A stretch of 24,826 nt of DNA from Clostridia bacterium (GCA_030535815.1 JAUNRD010000001.1:1-24826), one strand, 5' to 3'. Shown: positions 12,070 to 23,542, counted from the first letter of the stretch. Notes: generated by a model not told the origin, from the sequence alone. Program-made: numbers and translations.

Positions 12070-12441
12070 TTAAAATCCTTTAGCCATAAGGTATTCCTTT
12101 AATTTTTCAAAGCTTTCTTCGCTTATGTGGTGCTCGATTTTGCAACTGTCCTCATAGGCGGTGTCTTCACTAACACCCATAGCCATCAGTGCCTTTGCGA
12201 TAATTCTGTGGCGCTCATACATGGTTTCTGCAATGGAAAGCCCCTTTTCCGTCAGGGTGATGCTGCCTGATGAATCAATTACAATAAAGCCCTCCTCACG
12301 AAGCTTTTTCATTGCAACGGAAACGCTGGGCTTGGTAACAGAAAGCTCGGTTGCTATGTCAATACTTCTGACGTGGCCGTGTTTTTTATTAAGCATATGT
12401 ATGGTTTCGAGATAATTCTCGCCGGATTCTTTAATAATCAT
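12070..12441 (-). CDS. DtxR/MntR-family metal-dependent transcriptional regulator
   Basis: ENYLETI, wHTH RSIDIATELSVTKPSVSVAMKKL, YERH, DSCKIEHHIS metal-site motifs. Short form with no SH3/FeoA domain. Confidence 0.92.
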   Translation of the reverse strand: MIIKESGENYLETIHMLNKKHGHVRSIDIATELSVTKPSVSVAMKKLREEGFIVIDSSGSITLTEKGLSIAETMYERHRIIAKALMAMGVSEDTAYEDSCKIEHHISEESFEKLKEYLMAKGF

Positions 12442-12470
12442 ATTTATCCCTCTGAAAAGTTATTATATAT

Positions 12471-12499
12471 ATTGTATCATATAAACGGCAAATTGTCAA
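12471..12499 (-). promoter_or_regulatory. sigmaA promoter of the DtxR-family regulator
   Basis: Minus strand TTGACA-N17-TACAAT with TG extended -10. Confidence 0.7.
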
Positions 12500-12601
12500 A
12501 GGTGATTTAATAAGCCTTTTTGCAAAATTCCCTAAATGAGGAATAAAGTGGGCTTTTTAATTGTATAATTTTATAAAAATAAAAAATCTGTAAATTTTTT
12601 C

Positions 12602-12630
12602 TTGACAAAAGGGCACATTGGTGGTATTCT
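12602..12630 (+). promoter_or_regulatory. sigmaA promoter of feoA
   Basis: TTGACA-N17-TATTCT. Confidence 0.7.
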
Positions 12631-12637
12631 ATTTGCG

Positions 12638-12653
12638 GTTAGAGTAAACTAAC
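12638..12653. promoter_or_regulatory. Putative metal-regulator operator, copy 1 (GTTAG-N6-CTAAC)
   Basis: GTTAGAGTAAACTAAC immediately downstream of the feoA -10 box. Confidence 0.7.
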
Positions 12654-12676
12654 TTTAAGGACGGGGTGAGACTTAT

Positions 12677-12889
12677 ATGACATTAAGAGATGCTGAAGAA
12701 GGAAAAGAATACATCATAAAGGCAATTGAGACAGACGATGAGGAACTTGATGCGTTTCTGTTTTCTTTGGGCTGCTATGCCGGTGAAGCAATAACTGTCA
12801 TTTCACACCTTAAAGGCGGATGCGTCGTTTCCATAAAGGACGGCAGATATAATATAGATAATGAGTTAGCCGGGGCTATATCAATTTAA
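12677..12889 (+). CDS. feoA: Ferrous iron transport protein A
   Basis: 70 aa SH3-like pattern (FLFSLGCYAGEAITVI...IKDGRYNID..LA); lies upstream of feoB. Confidence 0.88.
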   Translation: MTLRDAEEGKEYIIKAIETDDEELDAFLFSLGCYAGEAITVISHLKGGCVVSIKDGRYNIDNELAGAISI

Positions 12890-12925
12890 GGCACGCTTTG
12901 GCATAACTTTTTATTTTCCTCATAA

Positions 12926-12941
12926 GTTAGTCGCGACTAAC
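12926..12941. promoter_or_regulatory. Putative metal-regulator operator, copy 2
   Basis: Perfect palindrome GTTAGTCGCGACTAAC between feoA and feoB, just after a possible TTGGCA-N17-CATAAG promoter (12898-12926). Confidence 0.7.
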
Positions 12942-12987
12942 GCATAGGGCGTATATAAAATACAATTAATTTTGAGGAGGAAGTTTT

Positions 12988-15003
12988 ATGAGAATTGCTT
13001 TGGCAGGCAATCCCAACTCAGGTAAAACCACTATGTATAACGGCCTTACCGGAAAAAACGAAAAAGTAGGAAACTGGGCGGGCGTAACTGTTGACAAAAA
13101 GGAAAGTGCCATCAGGAAAAGTCTTTGTAACGGAGAGGAAGGGATAATCGCAGTTGACCTTCCCGGCGCATATTCAATGTCGCCCTTCACATCGGAGGAG
13201 AGCATCACAAGTATCTACGTTAAAAACGAAAATCCCGATGCTATTATAAACATTGTTGATGCTACAAACCTTAGCAGAAGCCTGTTTTTCACCACTCAGC
13301 TTCTGGAGCTTGGAATTCCCGTGGTTGTTGCATTAAATAAGAGCGACATCAACGAAAAAAAGGAAACAAAAATTGACACAAAGCTTTTGTCTGAGCTTTT
13401 GAACTGTCCCGTTGTTGAAACAATTTCCACATCGGCTGACGGACTTTCCGAGGTTGTTTCTGCTGCAATCGGCGTGATTGGAAAAGGACAGGAGGCACCC
13501 TACACCCAGGGGGACATCGACCTTACGGATAAAGCAGTGGTTGTTGCGGCAGACAAAAAGAGGTTTAACTTTGTAAACAAAATCGTTGCTTCTGTTGAAA
13601 CAAGAAAGGTTTTCACAAAAGACAAAAACTTCCAGGATAAGATTGATGCTGTTTTAACCAACAAATGGCTTGGTATTCCGATTTTCGCCGTTGTAATGTG
13701 GTTTGTGTTCTGGGTTTCCCAGGCTTGGCTCGGCCCTATGATTTCAGACCTTCTGGTTGGCTGGATTGAAGCTTTCGGCACTGTTGTTGACGGCTGGATG
13801 GAATCCTCTTCCTCCGAGCTTTTAAAAACACTTGTATCAAGTGCCATTGTTGACGGTGTAGGTGCCGTTGTAAGCTTTTTGCCCCTTGTTATGGTAATGT
13901 ATTTTATGATTGCCCTTTTGGAGGACTGCGGATATATGGCACGTGCAACAGTTGTGCTTGATCCCATATTCAAAAAGGTTGGTCTTTCGGGTAAATCCGT
14001 AATCCCCTTCGTTATCGGTACAGGCTGTGCAATCCCCGGCGTTATGGCGTGCCGTACCATAAGAAATGAGCGTGAAAGAAGAGCAACCGCAATGCTTGCA
14101 CCCTTTATGCCCTGCGGAGCAAAGCTTCCCGTTATTTCCCTCTTTGTAGGTGCTTTCTTTGCAGAGTCTGCCTGGGTTGGAACTGCAATGTACTTTGCAG
14201 GTATCGTAATCATCCTTCTCTGCGCACTTTTGGTCAACAAAATCACTGCCTATAAAGCAAGAAAATCCTTCTTTATCATAGAGCTTCCCGAATATAAATT
14301 CCCCAGTATAAAGCGTGCAGCACTTTCCATGTGTCAGCGTGGCTGGTCATACATAGTAAAGGCAGGTACAATTATTCTTGTATGTAACGTGCTTATAACG
14401 GTTTTAAGCAATCTGACACCTACCTTCAGTCTTGCGGCAGAAAACGGTTCAGATTCAATCCTTGCGTATATCTGCGGTCCCATTGACTGGATTATAATCC
14501 CCGTTATCGGCTTTGCATCCTGGAAGCTGGTTGCCTGTGCAATAACAGGCTTCATCGCAAAGGAAAACGTTGTGGGAACCGTGGCAACCTTGTTCGGTCT
14601 TTCTGCAGTAATCAACGGCGACCTTGAGCTTGTTGGCGAAGGAAGTGTTGTAGCAGATGCATTAGGACTTGTTCCCGCATCGGCTCTTGCTTATATGATG
14701 TTTAACCTCTTCACACCGCCCTGCTTTGCGGCAATCGGAGCAATGAATGCGGAAATGAAGAGCAAGAAATGGCTCTTCGGCGGTATCTGCCTCCAGCTTG
14801 GCGTTGGCTTTACCGTAGGATTTCTTGTATATCAGATTGGCACTTTAATCTCGGAAGGACACTTTGGAAATGGCTTTACAGGCGGACTTATTGCAATTAT
14901 CGTTATGGCGGCAATTGTAGTATACCTTTGCATAAAGTCTGATAAGAAGCTTAAAGCAGAATATGCTCTTAAGGCTGCCCAAAAGGCAAAGGAGAAGGTA
15001 TGA
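12988..15003 (+). CDS. feoB: Ferrous iron transport protein B
   Basis: G1 GNPNSGKT, VGNWAGVTV, DLPGAYS, NKSD, gate motifs GTGCAIPG, PFMPCGAKLP and PPCFAAIG. GAGGAGG SD. Confidence 0.96.
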   Translation: MRIALAGNPNSGKTTMYNGLTGKNEKVGNWAGVTVDKKESAIRKSLCNGEEGIIAVDLPGAYSMSPFTSEESITSIYVKNENPDAIINIVDATNLSRSLFFTTQLLELGIPVVVALNKSDINEKKETKIDTKLLSELLNCPVVETISTSADGLSEVVSAAIGVIGKGQEAPYTQGDIDLTDKAVVVAADKKRFNFVNKIVASVETRKVFTKDKNFQDKIDAVLTNKWLGIPIFAVVMWFVFWVSQAWLGPMISDLLVGWIEAFGTVVDGWMESSSSELLKTLVSSAIVDGVGAVVSFLPLVMVMYFMIALLEDCGYMARATVVLDPIFKKVGLSGKSVIPFVIGTGCAIPGVMACRTIRNERERRATAMLAPFMPCGAKLPVISLFVGAFFAESAWVGTAMYFAGIVIILLCALLVNKITAYKARKSFFIIELPEYKFPSIKRAALSMCQRGWSYIVKAGTIILVCNVLITVLSNLTPTFSLAAENGSDSILAYICGPIDWIIIPVIGFASWKLVACAITGFIAKENVVGTVATLFGLSAVINGDLELVGEGSVVADALGLVPASALAYMMFNLFTPPCFAAIGAMNAEMKSKKWLFGGICLQLGVGFTVGFLVYQIGTLISEGHFGNGFTGGLIAIIVMAAIVVYLCIKSDKKLKAEYALKAAQKAKEKV

Positions 15004-15176
15004 CGGACATAATCATCGGTGCAGTATTGGTAATAATCGTCGGGCTTGCCGTATTCTATATAATAAAAGAAAAGAAAAAAGGCAAAAGGTGCATAGGCTG
15101 TCCCGACGGCGGATGCGATTGCTGTTGCAGCAACCCCGGCAAAGAAAAATGTAATCATAAAAGCTCTGCGGAATAA
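15000..15176 (+). CDS. FeoB-associated Cys-rich small membrane protein (58 aa; absent from the ORF track)
   Basis: ATGA overlap with the feoB stop. Translates as MTDIIIGAVLVIIVGLAVFYIIKEKKKGKRCIGCPDGGCDCCCSNPGKEKCNHKSSAE. Confidence 0.88.
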   Translation: MTDIIIGAVLVIIVGLAVFYIIKEKKKGKRCIGCPDGGCDCCCSNPGKEKCNHKSSAE

Positions 15177-15182
15177 TAAAAA

Positions 15183-15213
15183 TCCCGTGCCGTTAGCGGC
15201 ACGGGACTTTTTT
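15183..15213 (+). terminator. Intrinsic terminator after the feo operon
   Basis: TCCCGTGCCG-TTAG-CGGCACGGGA followed by CTTTTTT. Confidence 0.88.
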
Positions 15214-15232
15214 GAGTAAAAAACAAAATTTG

Positions 15233-15261
15233 TTGATTTTTTTGTCGATATATGATATACT
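15233..15261 (+). promoter_or_regulatory. Putative sigmaA promoter of the SPFH-TIR cassette
   Basis: TTGATT-N17-TATACT with TG extended -10, about 40 nt before ATG 15302. Confidence 0.65.
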
Positions 15262-15301
15262 GGGAAAAATACTTTTAAATATATTTTTAGGGGGATTTAT
15301 A

Positions 15302-17218
15302 ATGGGTAAATTTGCATTGGAATGTCCTAAATGCGGAAGCTTAAATACAGCATCAACATTTTTTCTGGCAAGAAAGGTGATTCAGTGCGGAACTTGCGGA
15401 GATGAAATAAATGTCGGACAGTCCCGAATGATTTCAAAAAGATGTTCAAAGTGCGGAAAAGTAGTTGTATGCGACCAGGCAAAAATGCGCAATAAAAAGT
15501 GCCCTTCCTGTGGTGAAGCGTTTGGAATTTCGAATGCAACTGCTGAATATGCACTGGCGACAATCAGCTGTCCTCAGTGTTCTTGTCAGATTGAGGTAAA
15601 CAAGAAACAGGAAACCGAAACATGTCCTGTATGTGACAGAATTATAAACGTAAAAGAGGCTATTGCAAAGGCGGATTTGGTGTCTCCTGACGGTATAAGC
15701 GTAATTAAATACGAGGGAGATAACAGCACATTTATCTGGAAGCATCCCATAGAAGATTTTAACATGGGCTCCCAGCTTATAGTACATGAATCCCAGGAGG
15801 CTATATTCTTCCTTAACGGAGAAGCACTGGATACTTTCGGACCCGGAAGACATACACTGGAAACCGAAAATCTTCCTGTACTCAAAAGAACATTTAAGCT
15901 CCCTACAGGCGCGCAGAATCCCTTCCATGCGGAAGTTTATTTCATAAACAAAACCGTTCAGATGGGCGTTAAATGGGGAACCGATTCAAGAGTAAGATTC
16001 ATAGAACCCAATACAGGAATCCCTATGGATATCGGAGCCTCCGGTGAAATGAACCTTCAGGTTTCTGATGGAAGAAAGCTTCTTATAAAGCTGGTGGGAA
16101 CAACTAATGGCTTATCCCGTGGTGGCATAGGAGCTGTTGTGGGAAGTGAATCTGCCGGAACGCCCAAGAATCATATGGAGGCAGAAGAATATAATAACGG
16201 CTGGACAAATACTCTTAACGGAATGTTCAGACCTCTTATCAGAACTACGGTAAAGACACATCTTGCAACTGCCATCAAGGCGCAGAATATAAATATTCTT
16301 GAAATTGATGAACATCTTGAAGCTTTGTCAGCCACATTAAGGGAGAAAATCTCGGAAGGCTTTGAGGAATACGGTCTCACAGTACCTCAGTTTTATGTAA
16401 CTAATGTTTCGTTGCCTGAAGGTGGACCCCTTGACAAAATCAGAAATTTACTTGCGGCTTCTTATCTCGGTGTGCGTGAGGCTGAGGTTAAAGCAGATAT
16501 TACTGCGGCAGAACGTAAGATAAGCATTGAGAAGGCAATAACCGAGACAGAGCTTGCGAAATTTGAGGCAGAAAGAACACGTATTGCTGCGCAGGCTGAA
16601 GCGGATAAGAGGAAATATGAAGGCTTTGCCGAAGCAGAAGTAATGGCGGCTCAGGGATACAGCCAGAAGGATGTATTGCAGACCGAAGTGCAGAAGGCTT
16701 ATGCCGAAGGTATCGGAAACATGGGCGGCTCAGGCGGCGGCAGCGGCGTTGCGACCGATGTGATGGGTCTTGGTTTAGGACTTGCGGCAGCAGGCGCACT
16801 GGGCGGTCAGGTTGGCGACGCTCTCAAGGGCTTTTCGCCAACTGCCAATTCAAGTGCACCGGGGGCTGCACCCGTATCGGATGGCTGGGATTGTAGCTGC
16901 GGAGCTAAAGGCATAAAAGGAAAGTTCTGTTCCGAATGCGGAGCACCCAAGCCTGAAGTGTGGGATTGTCCTTCCTGCGGAGCAAAGGGTATAAAAGGAA
17001 AGTTCTGTTCCGAGTGCGGTACTCCCAAGCCCGAAGCATGGGATTGTCCTTCCTGCGGAGCTAAAGGAAATAAAGGTAAGTTCTGCTCTGAGTGCGGAAA
17101 GCCGAAAGATGCAGCAGGCAAAGAGGTAAATGAACAGGCCTGGGACTGCAGCTGCGGAGCCAAGGGCATAACAGGAAAATTCTGCTATGAATGCGGAGCA
17201 AAAAAGGAGGATAATTAA
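15302..17218 (+). CDS. SPFH/Band-7 (YdjI-like) protein with 3 N-terminal Zn ribbons, coiled coil, Gly-rich segment and 4 C-terminal Cys4 repeats
   Basis: Core WKHPIEDFNMGSQLIVHESQEAIFFLNG...GPGRHTLETENLP...EVYFIN...KWGT. Six N-terminal CxxC pairs, an Ala/Glu-rich coil, WDC..CG..KFC.ECG repeats. GGGGG SD before ATG 15302 (638 aa). Confidence 0.85.
   Translation: MGKFALECPKCGSLNTASTFFLARKVIQCGTCGDEINVGQSRMISKRCSKCGKVVVCDQAKMRNKKCPSCGEAFGISNATAEYALATISCPQCSCQIEVNKKQETETCPVCDRIINVKEAIAKADLVSPDGISVIKYEGDNSTFIWKHPIEDFNMGSQLIVHESQEAIFFLNGEALDTFGPGRHTLETENLPVLKRTFKLPTGAQNPFHAEVYFINKTVQMGVKWGTDSRVRFIEPNTGIPMDIGASGEMNLQVSDGRKLLIKLVGTTNGLSRGGIGAVVGSESAGTPKNHMEAEEYNNGWTNTLNGMFRPLIRTTVKTHLATAIKAQNINILEIDEHLEALSATLREKISEGFEEYGLTVPQFYVTNVSLPEGGPLDKIRNLLAASYLGVREAEVKADITAAERKISIEKAITETELAKFEAERTRIAAQAEADKRKYEGFAEAEVMAAQGYSQKDVLQTEVQKAYAEGIGNMGGSGGGSGVATDVMGLGLGLAAAGALGGQVGDALKGFSPTANSSAPGAAPVSDGWDCSCGAKGIKGKFCSECGAPKPEVWDCPSCGAKGIKGKFCSECGTPKPEAWDCPSCGAKGNKGKFCSECGKPKDAAGKEVNEQAWDCSCGAKGITGKFCYECGAKKEDN
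16886..17218 (+). repeat. Four in-frame tandem coding repeats (75, 78, 102 and 78 nt units) encoding W-D-C-x1-2-C-G-x6-K-F-C-x2-C-G
   Basis: Units start at 16886, 16961, 17039 and 17141, with high DNA similarity and mostly synonymous differences. Confidence 0.95.
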
Positions 17219-17220
17219 TC

Positions 17221-17934
17221 ATGAACGGAACAAAATCTTCTAATAATATCAATAATCTGGCAATTATTATCGGTTTGGTTTTTGTGGCATATAATGCCGT
17301 GGTTTTTGCCCTTTGCGGATTTGCTGATCATAATGCATCTTTTTGGATTTCAATAGTATTTGCGAATGTTTCTTTGATTTCTGTAACAGTATGCGCTTTT
17401 CTGCTCAAAGGAAAAAAACTTGAGCCCAGAGACTGGATGATGGGATACCCCTTTTACAGACACGGAATAATTTATGTAATTACCGAATTGGTTTTGTCTG
17501 TAATATTTATGGTAACAGATAAACAGGGATTGCCGTGGTCAATAGCGTTTGTGGTTCAGTTTATTGTTATGATAGTTTTCGGAATTATTATAATAACCTG
17601 CTTTATGGCTAAAGATACCATAGAGGAAGTGCGGGAAAAGGTAAAGGTAAATACTGCTTTTATGAAAATGCTTTTGGTAGATGCTGATATGCTTGTGGAG
17701 CAAACAGAAGCTCCTGAACTTAAAAAGGTATTTTCCGAATTACGCGACCAGATAAGATATAGTGATCCTGTAAGCAACGAACAGCTTGCAGACCTTGAAG
17801 GAAGACTGGCATCTCAGGTTGATACCATAAAGGTCAACATGACGTGCGGAAATACAGAGGGAGCATTGGACAGCTGCAAACAGGCAATGCTTCTGCTCAG
17901 TGAACGTAACAGAAAATGTAAGTTGCTCAAATAA
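17221..17934 (+). CDS. Uncharacterised membrane protein: 4 predicted TM helices plus a C-terminal helical domain
   Basis: Four hydrophobic segments in the first ~130 aa, then an amphipathic helical region with IRYSDPVS. AAGGAGG SD; 2 nt after the SPFH stop. Confidence 0.8.
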   Translation: MNGTKSSNNINNLAIIIGLVFVAYNAVVFALCGFADHNASFWISIVFANVSLISVTVCAFLLKGKKLEPRDWMMGYPFYRHGIIYVITELVLSVIFMVTDKQGLPWSIAFVVQFIVMIVFGIIIITCFMAKDTIEEVREKVKVNTAFMKMLLVDADMLVEQTEAPELKKVFSELRDQIRYSDPVSNEQLADLEGRLASQVDTIKVNMTCGNTEGALDSCKQAMLLLSERNRKCKLLK

Positions 17935-17998
17935 ATGAGAGAAACTGCTCATTTAATAAGCAGATATGAAATTAAAAACGATCCCGCCATATTGATTT

Positions 17999-18370
17999 AT
18001 GGCGGGATTAGGCTTATTCATTGCATATATTTTACTGGAGGATGAGGAAATGGTAGTGGTTGTAATAGCGGTTATCTGTGCGATAGCGGCGGTGATGATA
18101 TACGTTGTAAATAATAAGTCGGCAAAGGATAATGCTGTGCAGAGTGCAGAAATCGGACATATGGAAACTGAAAACGCAAATATCATACATAAGTCGGCAA
18201 CAGATTATATAAATGCGGCTAAAAGCGTGTGCGATAAAGAAGAAAACTTATCGCAATATGCTGCTAAGAGCAATGCGGCAAAGGCAGAAAATGATGCAAA
18301 GACAGCGCTTGAGGCCTGTGCCAGAGAGAAAGACAAACTTAAAGAATTGCTCGGCACATTGAACGTATAA
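17999..18370 (+). CDS. Small membrane-anchored helical protein (start uncertain: 17999, 18050, or frameshifted from 17935)
   Basis: Hydrophobic MVVVVIAVICAIAAVMIYVV followed by an Ala/Lys-rich helical region; co-oriented between the cassette genes. Confidence 0.55.
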   Translation: MAGLGLFIAYILLEDEEMVVVVIAVICAIAAVMIYVVNNKSAKDNAVQSAEIGHMETENANIIHKSATDYINAAKSVCDKEENLSQYAAKSNAAKAENDAKTALEACAREKDKLKELLGTLNV

Positions 18371-18396
18371 GAATTTTGTAAAATGGGGGATTTAAC

Positions 18397-20217
18397 ATGG
18401 GGGTAGTACATTGTAAAATGTGCGGAGGCGCATTAAATATAGTTGAAAATGTAAGCGTGGTCACGTGCGAATTCTGCGATACGCAACAGACTATACCGAC
18501 CGTAGATGATGAAAAAATAGCACAGCTTTTCGAGCGTGCAAATTATTACCGCTTGAATAATGAGTTTGACAAAGCGGCTGTTATATACGAAAATATAGTT
18601 GGCGAAAAAAACAATGAAGCGGAAGCATACTGGGGAATGTGCCTTTGTAAGTACGGAATTGAGTATGTGCTTGATGAAAAGACAAATAGAAGAATACCCA
18701 CCTGTCACCGTACACAGTTCAAATCAATTCTCGAAGACACGGACTATAAAAAGGCAATAGAAAACTCGGACCTTTTATCAAAGCGTGTGTATGAAGAAGA
18801 AGCTTCGTATATTGACAGCGTACAGAAGGGCATTTTATCAATATCTTCAAAAGAGGAACCCTTTGATATATTTATCTGTTATAAAGAAACGGGAGAAAAT
18901 AATCAGAGAACGATTGACAGCGTGCTGGCGCAGGATATATATACAAAGCTTACCGACGAAGGCTATAAAGTGTTTTTTGCCAGAATAACACTTGAAGACA
19001 AGCTGGGAAAAGCGTATGAACCTTATATTTTCGCTGCACTTAACAGTGCAAAAGTAATGTTGGTTGTAGGCACAAAACCGGAACATTTCAATGCCGTATG
19101 GGTAAAAAATGAATGGAGCAGATATGTTGAGCTCATCGAACACGGAAAAGATGTTGCACTTATTCCGTGCTATAAAGATATGAACCCCTATGAATTGCCC
19201 GTGGAGTTTGCGGCATTGCAGGCGCAGGACATGGGTAAAGTGGGCGCTATGCAGGACCTTATCAGAGGGATAAAGAAAATCCACAATATTAAAGCAACAA
19301 ATGAGTCTGATAATGCAGGAGTAAAAAGCGAAATTGACATAAGCAATCTTATGAGCGGAAATGCAGGCTCTGTTCTGAAAAGAGGATATATTTATCTTGG
19401 AGAAGGAGATTTTGCAAGAGCGAAAGAATGTTTTGAGAAAAGTCTTTATATGAGTCCTGAATTGGGTGCGGCTTACTGGGGTATTGTACTGGCTATGGCA
19501 AAGTGCAAGAGCAATGACGATATGATTTCACGGGGAAGAGCCATCCCCAACAGCTCGGCATATAAGAGTGCCATGGGCTTTGCTACCCCTGAAGAGAAGG
19601 TAGAATACGATAGGGTTAAAGATGGAATCGTAAAGACTGTAGTGGGCACCATAAATAAGCTGCAGGCGAAAAAAGCTGAAGCTATAATAAAGAGCGGGGC
19701 TAAGGAAGCGCTGGCTAAAAGTGAGGCGTTTGTTGCGGGTGCGGCAAAAGAAATCCAGGATGGAATTAAGCGACTTAAGGAGATAGAAGCAGAACTGGCA
19801 AATTGCATTGAAACGTGTAAAGCAATGAATTCAGAAGCAATACAGAGTATAAAAAGGGACTTGGCTGTTGCAATAAAAATCAGAACAACCGTGGAAAGCA
19901 ACATGAAAATTGCTACCGGTGATTTGCAGGTATATAAAGACGAGTTTGAAAAATATGCCTCACAGATGAAAAACAGCGTTGAAAAAATAGCACAGAATAA
20001 AAAAGAACCGGCTTTTTCCAAGCTTTTTGCATTGACTGAAGAACAGACAAAAATCAGCGTTAGACTTTCGGACGGAATCCCCAAGGAAGCGTACGGATAT
20101 GAAAGACGTCTTTCTGATTTGGTGGAAGAGGTAGGGGAAATAGCGGAAAAATATAATAAAGCTATTAACGATGTCAAGACTGGAAATTATGATCTTGCAA
20201 AAGAGCTTCTCGGATAA
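18397..20217 (+). CDS. TIR-domain protein: Zn ribbon - TPR - TIR - TPR - coiled coil
   Basis: CKMCGG...CEFCD ribbon. TIR segment FDIFICYKE...LAQDIYTKLTDEGYKVFF...ALNSAKVMLVVGT...WVKNEW. Two TPR-like units ending in AYWG. Long helical C-terminus. Confidence 0.87.
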   Translation: MGVVHCKMCGGALNIVENVSVVTCEFCDTQQTIPTVDDEKIAQLFERANYYRLNNEFDKAAVIYENIVGEKNNEAEAYWGMCLCKYGIEYVLDEKTNRRIPTCHRTQFKSILEDTDYKKAIENSDLLSKRVYEEEASYIDSVQKGILSISSKEEPFDIFICYKETGENNQRTIDSVLAQDIYTKLTDEGYKVFFARITLEDKLGKAYEPYIFAALNSAKVMLVVGTKPEHFNAVWVKNEWSRYVELIEHGKDVALIPCYKDMNPYELPVEFAALQAQDMGKVGAMQDLIRGIKKIHNIKATNESDNAGVKSEIDISNLMSGNAGSVLKRGYIYLGEGDFARAKECFEKSLYMSPELGAAYWGIVLAMAKCKSNDDMISRGRAIPNSSAYKSAMGFATPEEKVEYDRVKDGIVKTVVGTINKLQAKKAEAIIKSGAKEALAKSEAFVAGAAKEIQDGIKRLKEIEAELANCIETCKAMNSEAIQSIKRDLAVAIKIRTTVESNMKIATGDLQVYKDEFEKYASQMKNSVEKIAQNKKEPAFSKLFALTEEQTKISVRLSDGIPKEAYGYERRLSDLVEEVGEIAEKYNKAINDVKTGNYDLAKELLG

Positions 20218-20255
20218 ATTAATTGCAGGGTCGGCGGTAAGATGATTTCATAAAT

Positions 20256-20300
20256 AAAAAAGCCTGTGAGCAACAGAATTCTGTGCTCACAGGCTTTTTT
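20256..20300. terminator. Bidirectional terminator between the TIR gene and cimA
   Basis: AAAAAAGCCTGTGAGCA / TGCTCACAGGCTTTTTT 17-bp stem enclosing the palindrome CAGAATTCTG. Confidence 0.9.
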
Positions 20301-21865
20301 TACTTATGGTTTTTAATCAGATAATATTCAAGAGAATCAAGAAGCGCTTCTTTTGATGCCATGATTATGTCTTTGGAAACGCCGATGGTTGTCCATGAAT
20401 CAAGACCGTCGGAAGATTCTATCATAACACGAACCAGAGCTTCTGTTGCAGCGCCCGAATCAATTACTCTGACCTTGTAGTCGGTAAGCTTTACCTTCGA
20501 TATTTCGGGATAGAATTTTTCAAGGGCTTTTCTGAGAGCGGTGTCCATGGCGTTGACGGGACCGGAATTTGAGTCACTGGCGGAAATTTCCGAATCGGCA
20601 TCGGCAAAAACTTTTATATATGCCGAGGAATAACCGTCGGTATCACGCTCAGCATCCTGCTCAATTAAAAGGCGGAGACGATCAATGTCAAAGAAGGGCT
20701 TGTCATAAAGCCCTAAGGCCTTTCTTATCTCAAGCTCGAAGGAAGCAAGAGCACCTTCAAACTGATATCCTTTGTATTCCAGTTCCTTCAGGCGTTCCAC
20801 CACCTTTGTAACTTCGGGTGAATCCTTGTCTATGCCGGGAATGATCTTACGCATCATGGCGTAAGCTGCGCTTTTTCCTGCAACTTCACTTATCAGAAAG
20901 CTCCTGTCATTTCCCACAAATTCCGGATCTATGTGCTCAAAGGAAGCGGGGTTTTTCATAACACCGTCTATATGGGTGCCTGCCTTGTGGGAAAAAGCAT
21001 TTCTGCCCACATAAGGCAAATCTCTCATACTTAAGTTGGAAATATCGGCAATTGCACGGCAGGTATAGGTAAGGCTTGAAATATCAGGGACGATGTCATA
21101 ATTTTTCTTTAACTGCAGGTTTGCGATTACAGCTGATAAATTGGCGTTTCCGCAACGTTCTCCCGTTCCTATCATGGTGCCCTGAATGTGAGCAGCTCCG
21201 CCGTAAACGGAAAAAATACTGTTGGAAATTGCCATACCTGTATCATTATGAGCGTGTATACCGATGGTGCATGGAAGGAGCGATAAAACCTTTTCGGTTA
21301 TCTCCTTTATTTCGTCAGGGAAGCAACCACCGTTGGTGTCACAAAGGCAAACGGTATCTGCCCCGGCATCGGAAGCCGCCTTTATTGTCTTTATTGCGTA
21401 GTCGGGATTTTCCTTGTAGCCGTCAAAGAAATGTTCGGCATCGAAAATAACCTCTTTGCCGGAATCCTTCAGGAATCTGACTGAATCGGAAATCATTGAA
21501 AGATTTTCTGTAAGATCGGTTTTGAGAACTTCTTTCACATGAAGGTCCCATGTCTTTCCGAAAATTACGCAAACGTCTGTCCCGGAATCGCGAAGAGTGC
21601 AAAGCGCCTTATCTTCTGAAGGTTTTATGCCGGAATGCCTTGTGGCTCCAAAGCAGGCGATTTTTGAGTTTTTCAGCTTAAGCTTTTTGATCTCTCTGAA
21701 AAGTTCTTCATCTTTCAATGAATAGGCGGGGTTTCCCACTTCGATATAAGTTACTCCGAAATCGTCAAGGAGCTTTATTATTTTAAGCTTGTCGTTGACG
21801 GAATAGGACACTTTTACGCCCTGACATCCGTCGCGGAGGGTTGTATCAAGAACAGATAACTTCAA
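20300..21865 (-). CDS. cimA: Citramalate synthase (DRE-TIM metallolyase, LeuA/CimA family)
   Basis: LDTTLRDG, FDAEHFFDGYK, LCDTNGG, HAHND, GERCGNANL, PYVG..AFSHKAG; C-terminal regulatory domain GPVNAMD...LTDYKVRV. TTG start with AAAGGA SD. Confidence 0.88.
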   Translation of the reverse strand: MKLSVLDTTLRDGCQGVKVSYSVNDKLKIIKLLDDFGVTYIEVGNPAYSLKDEELFREIKKLKLKNSKIACFGATRHSGIKPSEDKALCTLRDSGTDVCVIFGKTWDLHVKEVLKTDLTENLSMISDSVRFLKDSGKEVIFDAEHFFDGYKENPDYAIKTIKAASDAGADTVCLCDTNGGCFPDEIKEITEKVLSLLPCTIGIHAHNDTGMAISNSIFSVYGGAAHIQGTMIGTGERCGNANLSAVIANLQLKKNYDIVPDISSLTYTCRAIADISNLSMRDLPYVGRNAFSHKAGTHIDGVMKNPASFEHIDPEFVGNDRSFLISEVAGKSAAYAMMRKIIPGIDKDSPEVTKVVERLKELEYKGYQFEGALASFELEIRKALGLYDKPFFDIDRLRLLIEQDAERDTDGYSSAYIKVFADADSEISASDSNSGPVNAMDTALRKALEKFYPEISKVKLTDYKVRVIDSGAATEALVRVMIESSDGLDSWTTIGVSKDIIMASKEALLDSLEYYLIKNHK

Positions 21866-21879
21866 AAAAATCAGTCCTT

Positions 21880-22329
21880 TCAGAACAGCTTTTTGCTGTC
21901 CAGTAATATGGTTACGGGGCCATCGTTAAGGAGGGAAATTTTCATATCTGCACCGAAAACTCCGCTTTCAACAGTAAGGCCTGCTTCACGTAACTTTTCC
22001 TTGTATTTTTCAAAATATGCTTCGCCGATATCGGGTGCGGCGGCAGTAATGAAAGCGGGACGGTTGCCTTTTCTGACATCCCCGTATAAAGTGAATTGAG
22101 AAATGGCAAGCACGCTTCCGCCCACGTCGGAAAGAGAAAGGTTCATTTTCTCATTTTCGTCCTCAAAAATGCGAAGCCCCAGAGTTTTCTTTACAATATA
22201 TTCAAGGTCAGAGTCATTATCCTCTTCTCCTACGCCGAGGAAAACGAGAAATCCCTTTTCTATCTCGCCTGTTATATTGCCGTCAACACGGCAGGAGGCA
22301 GAGCTTACACGCTGTATAACTGCACGCAT
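21880..22329 (-). CDS. dtd: D-aminoacyl-tRNA deacylase
   Basis: MRAVIQRV, LRIFEDENEKMNLS, SQFTL, GNRP, FGADM, NDGPVT. Confidence 0.97.
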   Translation of the reverse strand: MRAVIQRVSSASCRVDGNITGEIEKGFLVFLGVGEEDNDSDLEYIVKKTLGLRIFEDENEKMNLSLSDVGGSVLAISQFTLYGDVRKGNRPAFITAAAPDIGEAYFEKYKEKLREAGLTVESGVFGADMKISLLNDGPVTILLDSKKLF

Positions 22330-22373
22330 AATAATCTTCCTTTCGAAACGAATTGAAAATTTCCTTATTTTAC

Positions 22374-22402
22374 ATTATACAATATAAAATGTTTTTTTTC
22401 AA
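22374..22402 (-). promoter_or_regulatory. sigmaA promoter for dtd-cimA
   Basis: Minus strand TTGAAA-N17-TATAAT. Confidence 0.7.
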
Positions 22403-22409
22403 GACGCTA

Positions 22410-22439
22410 TTTACAATTGGGTGGATTTTGTGATATACT
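22410..22439 (+). promoter_or_regulatory. Putative sigmaA promoter for the DUF3048 gene
   Basis: TTTACA-N18-TATACT with TG extended -10; divergent from the dtd promoter. Confidence 0.55.
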
Positions 22440-22471
22440 GTATAAAAACGCATAAAAGAAAGGAAATTGCC

Positions 22472-23542
22472 ATGAAAAAGTTTTTAGCATTAATTTTAGC
22501 ACTGTTGATGATTACGGCACTTTTCTCTGCTTGTACCGGAGACAAGGAAGTGAAGGAAGCCATTGAGGAAACAGAAGATACCCCTTCCGTGTCTGAGTCC
22601 GAAGCCGAGCCTGAGCCCGAGCCGGAACCTGAGCCTGAACCTGAACCGGATGAGTTTTACACTAAGGTAACAGAAAGCGGCAGACCCATTGCGGTAATGA
22701 TAGATAACGACGCAGATTACAAGGGTCCTCAGGCTGGCCTTGAAAATGCATATATGATTTATGAAGTATATGTTGAAGGCGGAAACACGAGAATGATGGC
22801 TTTGTTCAAGGACGGATTTTTTGATGCAAATACTCCTTCGGATACCAGGATAGGACCTGTACGTTCATCACGCCATTATTTTTTGGACTTCGCCATAGAA
22901 AATGACGCCATATACGCTCATTGCGGATGGAGTCCCAAGGCACAGACGGAAATTTCTTCAAGAGGTGTGAACAATATAAACGGTCTTTATGAAACCGCAC
23001 CGTTTTACAGATTTTCCACATATGACAACAGCTGGCACAATCTTTATACAGATTTTGCACGACTTTCGAAGGCGGCAGATTCCCACGGATATAAAAGAAC
23101 GACAGCTGTTTCGGACAAATATCTTAAAAACTATAAGGTTCCCGAAGAAGGTGCTTCTGCTGTGAAGGTATCTGTTCCTTATACACAGTGTAAGATAAAT
23201 TATACCTTCAACGAAGAGACCGGTCTTTATGACAGAGTAAGAAGAGGTAATGCACACACCATGCAGTCCGGAGAAAGCATCTCTGTTATGAATATACTGA
23301 TCCTTGAAATGCAGAATGTTAATCTGAATGACGGCGAGAATAAAGGCAGACAGGATCTTTATGATACCGGAAGCGGCAAGGGTAAGTACATAACCGGCGG
23401 TAAGGCGATTGACATTACATGGGAAAAGGCTGACCGATCCGCAAAGACTAAGTATAAGGCAAACGGCGAGGAGATTTCTCTCAATCCCGGACTTACGTTT
23501 GTGCAGATTGTTCCTCCCACACTCGGAGTTACTGTTGAATAA
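22472..23542 (+). CDS. DUF3048 (YerB-like) lipoprotein
   Basis: Lipoprotein signal with lipobox FSAC, acidic EP linker, RPIAVMIDN, QAGL..A..IYE..VEGG.TR, GPVRSSR. AAAGGA SD before ATG 22472. Confidence 0.85.
   Translation: MKKFLALILALLMITALFSACTGDKEVKEAIEETEDTPSVSESEAEPEPEPEPEPEPEPDEFYTKVTESGRPIAVMIDNDADYKGPQAGLENAYMIYEVYVEGGNTRMMALFKDGFFDANTPSDTRIGPVRSSRHYFLDFAIENDAIYAHCGWSPKAQTEISSRGVNNINGLYETAPFYRFSTYDNSWHNLYTDFARLSKAADSHGYKRTTAVSDKYLKNYKVPEEGASAVKVSVPYTQCKINYTFNEETGLYDRVRRGNAHTMQSGESISVMNILILEMQNVNLNDGENKGRQDLYDTGSGKGKYITGGKAIDITWEKADRSAKTKYKANGEEISLNPGLTFVQIVPPTLGVTVE
22607..22648 (+). repeat. (Glu-Pro)7 low-complexity linker, degenerate GARCCN hexamer repeat
   Basis: GAG CCT GAG CCC GAG CCG GAA CCT GAG CCT GAA CCT GAA CCG. 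Confidence 0.9.

Follow-up and report, generated by a model that had tools for sequence, protein, structure and literature searches.

The stretch of DNA analysed here (the window) comprises 24,826 nucleotides from Clostridia bacterium (GCA_030535815.1 JAUNRD010000001.1:1-24826) and carries, at positions 15302-20217 of the plus strand, four intact open reading frames (ORFs), A to D. They encode, respectively, a soluble SPFH protein with zinc (Zn) ribbons, a protein with four transmembrane (TM) helices (4TM protein), a small coiled-coil protein with a single TM helix (1TM) and a TIR protein. On balance, we interpret the cassette as a membrane-platform TIR immune (conflict) module that is widespread, mobile and unnamed in gut and rumen Clostridia. 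The version found in the window is minimal: its TIR protein is single and soluble, its 1TM coiled-coil protein is lineage-specific and its SPFH protein is rich in Zn ribbons.

The linkage of these genes recurs in many genomes. In a sample of 399 genomes spread evenly over the class, from which gene maps were drawn for 43 loci, the TIR family is present in 30 genomes, and within the genus of the window in 4 of 11. About 22 of the 28 TIR loci of this sample have an SPFH gene within a few kilobases on the same strand. Scanning of species representatives with a profile of the N-terminal 318 residues, derived from a 12-sequence N-terminal alignment, yielded at least 582 stretches encoding TIR relatives among the 600 matches listed. 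The 78 best loci from named genomes, independent of the first set, were searched with hidden Markov models built from that set; an SPFH gene was detected in 52 of them, and in 46 it was accompanied by a 4TM gene located directly after it. Where at least 5 kb of sequence is available on either side, an SPFH gene is present in 15 of 19 loci. Without exception (55 of 55), the SPFH gene shares its strand with a TIR gene. The order SPFH, 4TM (with RYSDPxS and RNxKCKxLK motifs in the tail) and Zn ribbon-TPR-TIR, represented in the window by genes A, B and D, is shared by loci L013, L014, L024, L029 and many of L060-L138, and the SPFH gene followed immediately by the 4TM gene constitutes the invariant core of the family. 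The original prediction, made from the window by itself, had named recurring linkage and a patchy distribution as support and non-syntenic homologues as a refutation. The counts clearly contradict the latter; the genes do form a unit, which recurs and is mobile.

The cassette is hosted by gut and rumen members of Oscillospiraceae, Acutalibacteraceae, Ruminococcaceae, Lachnospiraceae, Christensenellaceae and Anaerovoracaceae, including the cultured Pseudoflavonifractor capillosus An827 and Lachnospiraceae bacterium NE2001. Despite the patchy presence of the family, the N-terminal 300-400 residues of the TIR proteins are 50-65% identical across bacterial families, and the housekeeping genes flanking the cassette in the window are not conserved at the loci of relatives. 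Tyrosine recombinases are found beside the cassette in 13 loci, and serine recombinases, TnpV and group II intron reverse transcriptases (RTs) are frequent neighbours of the relatives' cassettes. In a contig from a viral catalogue (L057, 3836-12463), a complete cassette is immediately preceded by a GH25 lysin and a serine recombinase, which is a typical cargo position at the end of a prophage. Another viral-catalogue contig, with two large serine recombinases, has a gene for an Hsp70/actin-fold ATPase upstream of the TIR gene (L058, 7144-9204).

Insertion between feoB and a synthase gene

Comparison with a sister species of the same genus (G002) provides an empty site. There, feoB (99% amino acid identity) and the synthase gene (93%) are arranged tail to tail and the homologous flanks are 136 bp apart, versus a block of 5171 bp in the window (15125..20295, plus strand; blastn of L056, G002:C28, against the window). 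Alignment of the left flank ends at 15124 (94.6% identity) and that of the right one begins at 20296 (82%). This contrast, which spans 12074-15124 on the left and 20296-22524 on the right, places the indel at a recombination break between differently related segments. No direct repeats, att-like sites or target-site duplication are evident at the borders of the insertion, which consist of diverged sequence with an own terminator on each side. The block and its context are also present, with 54 differences, on an independent 7.9-kb contig from a gut metagenome, and a chimeric assembly is thereby ruled out. Judging from these alignments, the block is an insertion, one copy of what appears to be a horizontally moving cassette; the sister species has its own diverged copy on another contig.

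Two further observations concern the genome of the window. A small Cys-rich membrane ORF located 3′ of feoB (15000-15176) differs from its counterpart in the sister species in the last ~17 codons, exactly at the border, so the insertion rewrote its C-terminus. In addition, the TIR family is represented a second time, by a gene with 65% identity over residues 3-295 on a 5.5-kb contig (L018, G000:C355, 1-1059) that has no SPFH gene within the available 4.4 kb.

The layout of the locus is that of four co-oriented, closely spaced genes between two terminators and among housekeeping genes, just as the original prediction described it from the sequence; the proposed own promoter is a consensus match only. 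All on the plus strand, gene A occupies 15302..17218 (638 residues), gene B 17221..17934 (237 residues), gene C 18050..18370 (106 residues; 123 from an alternative start at 17999) and gene D 18397..20217 (606 residues), with gaps of 2 nt between A and B, 64-115 nt between B and C, depending on the start of C, and 26 nt between C and D. The left border is formed by an intrinsic terminator (15183..15206, plus strand; 10-bp stem with 8 GC pairs, T-run, -21.2 kcal/mol) that ends the unit of feoB and the small Cys-rich ORF. It is followed by the promoter-like site TTGATT-17-TATACT with a TG extension (15233..15261, plus strand) and, at ~15290, by the ribosome-binding site GGGGGA upstream of the gene A ATG at 15302. 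A TTG at 15212 is an unlikely start of gene A, because it overlaps the promoter-like site. The right border is a bidirectional terminator (20256..20300; 17-nt perfect arms flanked by A6 and T7, -30.3 kcal/mol) common to the cassette and the convergent synthase gene. The flanking genes include feoB, the citramalate/isopropylmalate synthase-like gene (cimA), dtd, an ABC transporter, coaX, dacA and others of housekeeping type.

The window has no recombinase, inverton, ribbon-helix-helix (RHH) gene or diversity-generating retroelement (DGR), and a search for an inverton at the window promoter returned terminator hairpins only. Two metatranscriptome libraries hold short contigs nearly identical to parts of A, to the C-D junction and to D. 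These fragments are compatible with transcription of the cassette, weak evidence in that DNA carry-over could explain them too.

Composition of the proteins and their variation in relatives

Gene A matches Band_7_1 (E-value = 2e-39) and the double Zn ribbon family DZR (1.4e-6) of Pfam. Its 12 CxxC motifs correspond to seven Zn ribbons: three within residues 1-125, before the SPFH core, and four tandem ribbons of the form W-D-C..C / C-x-E-C at residues 529-638 (nucleotides 16886-17215). The SPFH/Band_7_1 core with a long coiled-coil helix spans residues ~131-470 and is succeeded by a disordered Gly-rich linker; no TM helix is present downstream of the ATG at 15302. In the AlphaFold2 (AF2) model the SPFH fold is extended by a 75-residue helix, and Foldseek retrieved HflK/C, stomatin, prohibitin and QmcA with E-values of 5e-8 to 1e-6, as well as flotillin. 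The SPFH protein of the window is unusually rich in ribbons, as those of cassettes elsewhere mostly have one to three and several have none. Since several of them are devoid of any CxxC motif, Zn ribbons are not universal on these SPFH proteins and cannot be the general contact that clusters the TIR protein, a role that the original prediction had assigned to them.

The product of gene B has four hydrophobic helices and a cytosolic helical tail with the family motifs RYSDPxS and RNxKCKxLK. The tail motifs are near-invariant, and their S, D, R and final K are invariant. No Pfam family, TPM domain included, corresponds to this protein. In the ESM Atlas it matched 90 unnamed clusters, with TM-scores of 0.85-0.89 to unnamed relatives only; the 4TM family as a whole has neither a Pfam model nor an annotated structural neighbour. 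The usual form of the 4TM protein is ~230 residues long with the motif-bearing tail. Two other forms exist, a 140-residue tail-less one in four loci and one of 500 residues that additionally has a fifth TM helix, TPRs and DUF6273.

Gene C is predicted to encode one N-terminal TM helix and a coiled coil. Its start at 18050 is preceded by GGAGGA, a better site than that of the ATG at 17999, and is the more likely one. The spacer between B and C (17935-18049) contains a hairpin with an 11-bp stem (17981..18008), which overlaps the upstream ATG, and a second small hairpin (17945-17963). These hairpins may represent a partial terminator or a seam at which the TIR half of the cassette was exchanged. 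No relative of gene C is present among the other 125 loci examined, and its slot is variable in relatives.

Gene D consists of a Zn ribbon (residues 1-35), a helical, TPR-like module with a β-hairpin insert (36-151), the TIR domain (156-283; nucleotides 18862-19245), TPRs (~320-395) and a unique coiled-coil tail (398-606). Pfam identifies TIR_2 (1e-8) and TPR. The AF2 model has a pLDDT of 82, with a confidence of 40-75 in the tail. Structure searches of the TIR domain with Foldseek returned AbTir (7uxu, target TM-score 0.75), the SPARTA TIR (8qlp, rmsd 2.5 Å), MAL and MyD88, and the profile of the TIR family matches the TIR domain of TLR2/15 at 3e-5. The catalytic Glu239, which the original prediction had singled out, is encoded by GAA at 19111-19113 and does correspond to the conserved glutamate of the family: W235, N238, E239 and W240 are invariant in close relatives (W235 and E239 in 12 of 12), the motif is kept in 29 of 30, and the W-V-K-N-E-W helix is invariant in the catalytic TIR family. 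By its fold and catalytic glutamate, the TIR domain thus appears to be of the enzyme (NADase) type, the activity itself being predicted.

The gene D protein is devoid of hydrophobic segments and TM helices and does not have the topology of Toll-like receptors. This makes it atypical among its relatives, most of which span the membrane (106/149); ~30 full-length TIR relatives likewise have no TM helix. BLAST of the tail (396-606) against all 125 loci detected no relative. A PspA/ESCRT-III-like tail was considered and rejected, as no Pfam match was obtained and the AF2 confidence in this region is 40-75. With neither a lectin domain of its own nor an RT or avd ORF in its vicinity, gene D does not qualify as a DGR target.

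In relatives, the slot between the 4TM and TIR genes, occupied in the window by the lineage-specific gene C, may hold a PDC-S15-like protein (2e-19), a DUF4365 protein matching the PADLOC restriction-endonuclease (REase) model (3e-9), or proteins with a weak DUF2971/PDC-S31 match or weak HEPN-like matches. The PDC-S15, REase and DUF2971/PDC-S31 models are associated with defence. TIR genes are present in one to four tandem copies: the 78 best loci have one copy in 52 cases, two in 17, three in 7 and four in 2. The C-termini of the TIR proteins are entirely different from each other, with DUF6273 in 9 of 36, RCC1 in 4 of 36 and LRR_5 in 1 of 36. In the 106 of 149 members already mentioned, the TM helix separates the conserved N-terminal part from the variable C-terminus; with the Zn ribbon necessarily in the cytosol, the variable part comes to lie outside the cell. 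A second class of paralogues (L017, L023, L025, L027, L020), arranged in tandem with the catalytic ones, has a Zn ribbon, a TIR-like domain of ~190 residues, a TM helix and an outer domain, and has no WVKNEW helix; it may be a non-enzymatic partner.

DGRs, composed of bAvd, a template repeat (TR) and an RT, directly follow the TIR gene in four loci: L021 (2779-3598; same contig as L067), L091 (6520-7339), L119 (12422-13250) and L135 (8376-13012). The variable repeat (VR) coincides with the last 40-50 codons of the TIR gene, and the TR-VR mismatches fall at TR adenines in 16/17, 24/26, 18/21, 18/21 and 17/21 cases. L135 has two TIR genes, each with a VR, supplied by a single TR. What the DGRs rewrite is DUF6273, which is C-type-lectin-like and forms the C-terminal tip of these TIR-TM proteins; the same domain has been reported as a DGR target in receptor-binding proteins of gut phages (PMC11792537; bioRxiv 10.1101/2024.10.15.618418). 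Moreover, all five loci checked among those with a tyrosine recombinase have a segment of 116-267 bp, between the recombinase gene and the first gene of the cassette, that is enclosed by inverted repeats of 23-31 nt; the repeats match perfectly in three pairs and are 92-93% complementary in two (L016 12229-12543; L021 8891-9068; L022 7073-7326; L025 8769-9043; L041 2437-2714). This architecture fits that of invertible promoters and hence putative phase-variable expression. A small RHH gene heads the operon in 20 loci. The tandem paralogues, swapped C-termini and DGR-rewritten tips have the appearance of arms-race signatures.

Comparison with known systems

To our knowledge, an SPFH scaffold with 4TM partners occurs in no named defence system. 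PADLOC and NCBIfam models gave no meaningful match to the four cassette proteins; in PADLOC, gene D had no match at E-values up to 0.1, and genes A and B matched at noise level only. In the literature searched, also for DUF6273, DUF6591 and Band_7_1, no paper was found that combines SPFH with TIR, Thoeris or anti-phage defence or that describes the cassette. The view that the combination matches no named system thus stands.

With Thoeris, SPARTA, TIR-STING and TIR-NLR (Avs-type) systems, the cassette shares a TIR domain with a catalytic glutamate, a variable sensor part and an association with mobile DNA, and the TIR fold of gene D is closest to the AbTir and SPARTA domains. In contrast to these systems, the cassette has no ThsA, Argonaute, STING, cyclase or NTPase and matches no PADLOC TIR model. 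It is not Thoeris, because neither ThsA nor ThsB models of PADLOC were matched; SIR2, SLOG and Macro domains were likewise not detected with Pfam. The absence of ThsA/B, cyclase, Argonaute and PspA, which the original prediction had noticed for the cassette, accordingly agrees with the PADLOC and Pfam searches.

Two groups of membrane proteins offer analogies. Like Toll-like receptors, most relatives of gene D combine an outer variable domain (LRR in one case), one TM helix and an inner TIR domain, and eukaryotic SPFH proteins, which organise membrane microdomains, provide a loose parallel to the SPFH partner. The resemblance is one of analogy, not of whole-protein homology; unlike in these receptors, TIR is N-terminal (the reversed order) and the enzyme-type glutamate is kept, and gene D of the window has neither a TM helix nor an outer domain. 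As in SPFH cages (HflK/C-FtsH, QmcA-YbbJ, stomatin, flotillin), gene A is predicted to combine SPFH with a long coiled-coil helix and has a small dedicated membrane partner, but it has no TM anchor of its own, and the partner is neither an NfeD protein nor a protease. A further likeness is to DGR-diversified putative antigen sensors of multicellular bacteria, which are STAND NTPases or MoxR-vWA ternary modules, mostly cytoplasmic (PMC10907252, PMC7159879). Relatives of D share with them a DGR-rewritten, C-type-lectin-like C-terminus fused to TIR; unlike them, the cassette is free of NTPases, places the lectin domain on the far side of a TM helix and adds SPFH and 4TM partners, and the copy in the window has no DGR.

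The closest arrangement is found in the pspA-ydjGHI (samGHI) operon of Bacillus subtilis, in which YdjI, a soluble SPFH protein, needs the membrane proteins YdjG and YdjH and recruits PspA (PMC8581546, PMC13713150, PMC11237479). In both cases the SPFH protein is soluble, belongs to the Band_7_1 family and has a Zn ribbon at its C-terminus, its gene lies next to those of membrane proteins, and one partner begins with Zn ribbons, namely YdjG (PMC8581546, PMC11237479) and here gene D. The analogy drawn by the original prediction is therefore apt (PMC8581546): gene A has the features of the YdjI type, i.e. a soluble Band_7_1 protein with Zn ribbons, and, as YdjI is recruited by membrane partners and serves a client, gene A might by analogy have the same roles. 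The differences are equally clear. Gene B is unrelated to YdjH, having no TPM domain and a fold matching unnamed clusters only, and the Zn-ribbon partner, gene D, has TPRs and TIR, whereas YdjG has two Zn ribbons, an NTF2-like domain and a TM helix. There is no PspA_IM30 in the cassette, and PF04012 was not found in the window's 75%-complete genome (control: found in 9 of 14 known genomes). Furthermore, ydjGHI is a sigma-W stress operon, while the cassette is mobile, patchy and multi-paralogous. Given the absence of PspA and the unrelatedness of gene B to YdjH, the cassette does not belong to the pspA-ydjGHI family, and only the logic of the arrangement is common. What seems to be new, as far as domain composition tells, is the joining of a putative TIR sensor-effector to a YdjI-type SPFH platform; each part is of a known kind.

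Proposed mechanism, alternatives and implications

SPFH proteins form membrane-attached rings or cages, and TIR NADases are activated by self-association. In the mechanism that we propose, the 4TM protein (B) would anchor a ring or cage of the SPFH protein (A) under the membrane, and this platform would hold or concentrate TIR proteins. The variable C-terminal domains of the latter, extracellular and lectin-like, RCC1 or LRR in most relatives and a cytosolic coiled coil in the window, would recognise a cue derived from an invader or from the envelope. Recognition would lead to TIR-TIR assembly and cleavage of NAD+, resulting in depletion (abortive infection, growth arrest) or in production of a signal. 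In the window, the sensor might be the unique coiled coil of gene D, speculatively tethered via gene C. As the TIR proteins mostly span the membrane and expose a variable outer domain, the likely sensor is the C-terminus of the TIR protein rather than the 4TM protein, to which anchoring or sensing had been attributed in the original prediction. Of that interpretation as a whole, the linkage, the unnamed status, Glu239 and the analogy with YdjI were retained, while the 4TM protein as sensor and the Zn ribbon as general contact were not.

Several observations weigh against reading the cassette as an immune module. No PADLOC model was matched, and tblastn of the first 301 residues of gene D against 72,556 plasmids and 50,697 phage records gave no match. 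About 20% of the adequately flanked TIR loci have no SPFH gene, which means that the TIR protein can exist alone. Conversely, the SPFH-4TM pair also occurs without a TIR gene (L041-L047, L053, L054), with non-TIR partners. Close pairs of this kind (L044 10829-12028; L045 9230-12264; L046 4517-7551) are followed by a gene whose product is of the Zn ribbon-3TM-DUF6591 type, with a gene for a bacterial PH-domain protein in the vicinity. The pair would accordingly be a general platform for membrane proteins headed by Zn ribbons and not a TIR-specific part. Conservation of the catalytic glutamate does not prove NADase activity. Gene D of the window has no TM helix, lectin domain, DGR or inverton, so the receptor-like features are borrowed from relatives. 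Finally, a complex prediction for A (125-520), B and D (1-310) scored 0.01, which by the tool's own statement is neither for nor against an interaction, and thus lends no support.

Three other explanations were considered. An envelope-surveillance or membrane-organising module of the YdjGHI/SamGHI kind, with no immune role, would account for the TIR-free pairs: SPFH-4TM would organise microdomains, Zn-ribbon proteins would be its clients or sensors of environmental or host ligands, including the non-TIR ectodomain proteins, and TIR would be a signalling or oligomerisation domain that adjusts physiology. Membership of gene A in the Pfam family of YdjI, its solubility and Zn ribbons, the dependence of YdjI on membrane partners and the ribbons at the start of YdjG (PMC8581546, PMC11237479) all favour it; SamGHI affects motility, secretion and biofilm formation, not defence (PMC13713150), and lectin-like, DGR-diversified surface proteins can serve adhesion. 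We nevertheless consider it unlikely, since PspA is missing from the cassette and was not found in the 75%-complete genome, gene B has no TPM domain and no similarity to YdjH, the catalytic motif of TIR does not vary, accessory genes of nuclease-like and PDC-like type accompany the cassettes, and the patchiness, empty site, recombinases and tandem arrays would be unusual for a housekeeping stress system.

In type II Thoeris, TIR-made signals activate membrane effectors. By this precedent, the TIR protein of the cassette would make a nucleotide signal, the cytosolic tail of the 4TM protein would bind it and permeabilise the membrane, and SPFH would restrain or organise the effector. The near-invariant tail motifs are compatible with a ligand pocket and the SPFH-4TM-TIR gene order is fixed, but the pair occurs in the TIR-free loci listed above, the 140-residue 4TM variant dispenses with the tail, no ThsA, ThsB, Macro or SLOG model was matched and the 4TM fold matches nothing annotated. 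We regard this two-step scheme as quite improbable. Fortuitous adjacency, or a decaying remnant devoid of joint function, could be suspected from the missing TM helix and outer domain of gene D, from gene C having no relatives in the loci examined and from truncated TIR-family copies elsewhere (G004, G360, G378). All four frames are intact, however, ~30 full-length relatives share the absence of a TM helix, same-strand linkage recurs in dozens of species, and the metatranscriptome fragments point, if weakly, in the same direction. Chance adjacency was rejected on the synteny counts, and joint decay is hardly credible.

The preferred interpretation as a membrane-platform TIR immune module admits a more specific form, which we put forward tentatively as a possibility. 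The family might represent receptor-type innate immunity of bacteria, in which TIR proteins gathered by SPFH read cues from the envelope or the outside, e.g. phage receptor-binding proteins, via swappable, hypermutable and promoter-switched outer domains, and cleave NAD+ inside. In such a scheme, phages would be recognised at the surface, in a diversifiable manner, before their genome enters or as it does so, and the soluble TIR protein of the window would represent a variant with a cytosolic sensor.

Bacteria, plants and animals alike have TIR enzymes at the centre of their immunity. Those bacterial TIR systems that have been characterised, as far as we know, all sense their cue inside the cell, with partners such as SIR2, Argonaute, STING or NTPases. 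Little is known about the phage defences of the Clostridia that host the cassette, which are dominant in gut and rumen, and the window offers a compact four-gene version with a clean empty-site comparison that is convenient for cloning. If the proposed interpretation is true, SPFH proteins would gain a concrete bacterial client, together with a tractable model for the control of TIR clustering at membranes. A membrane-level branch would be added to bacterial immunity.

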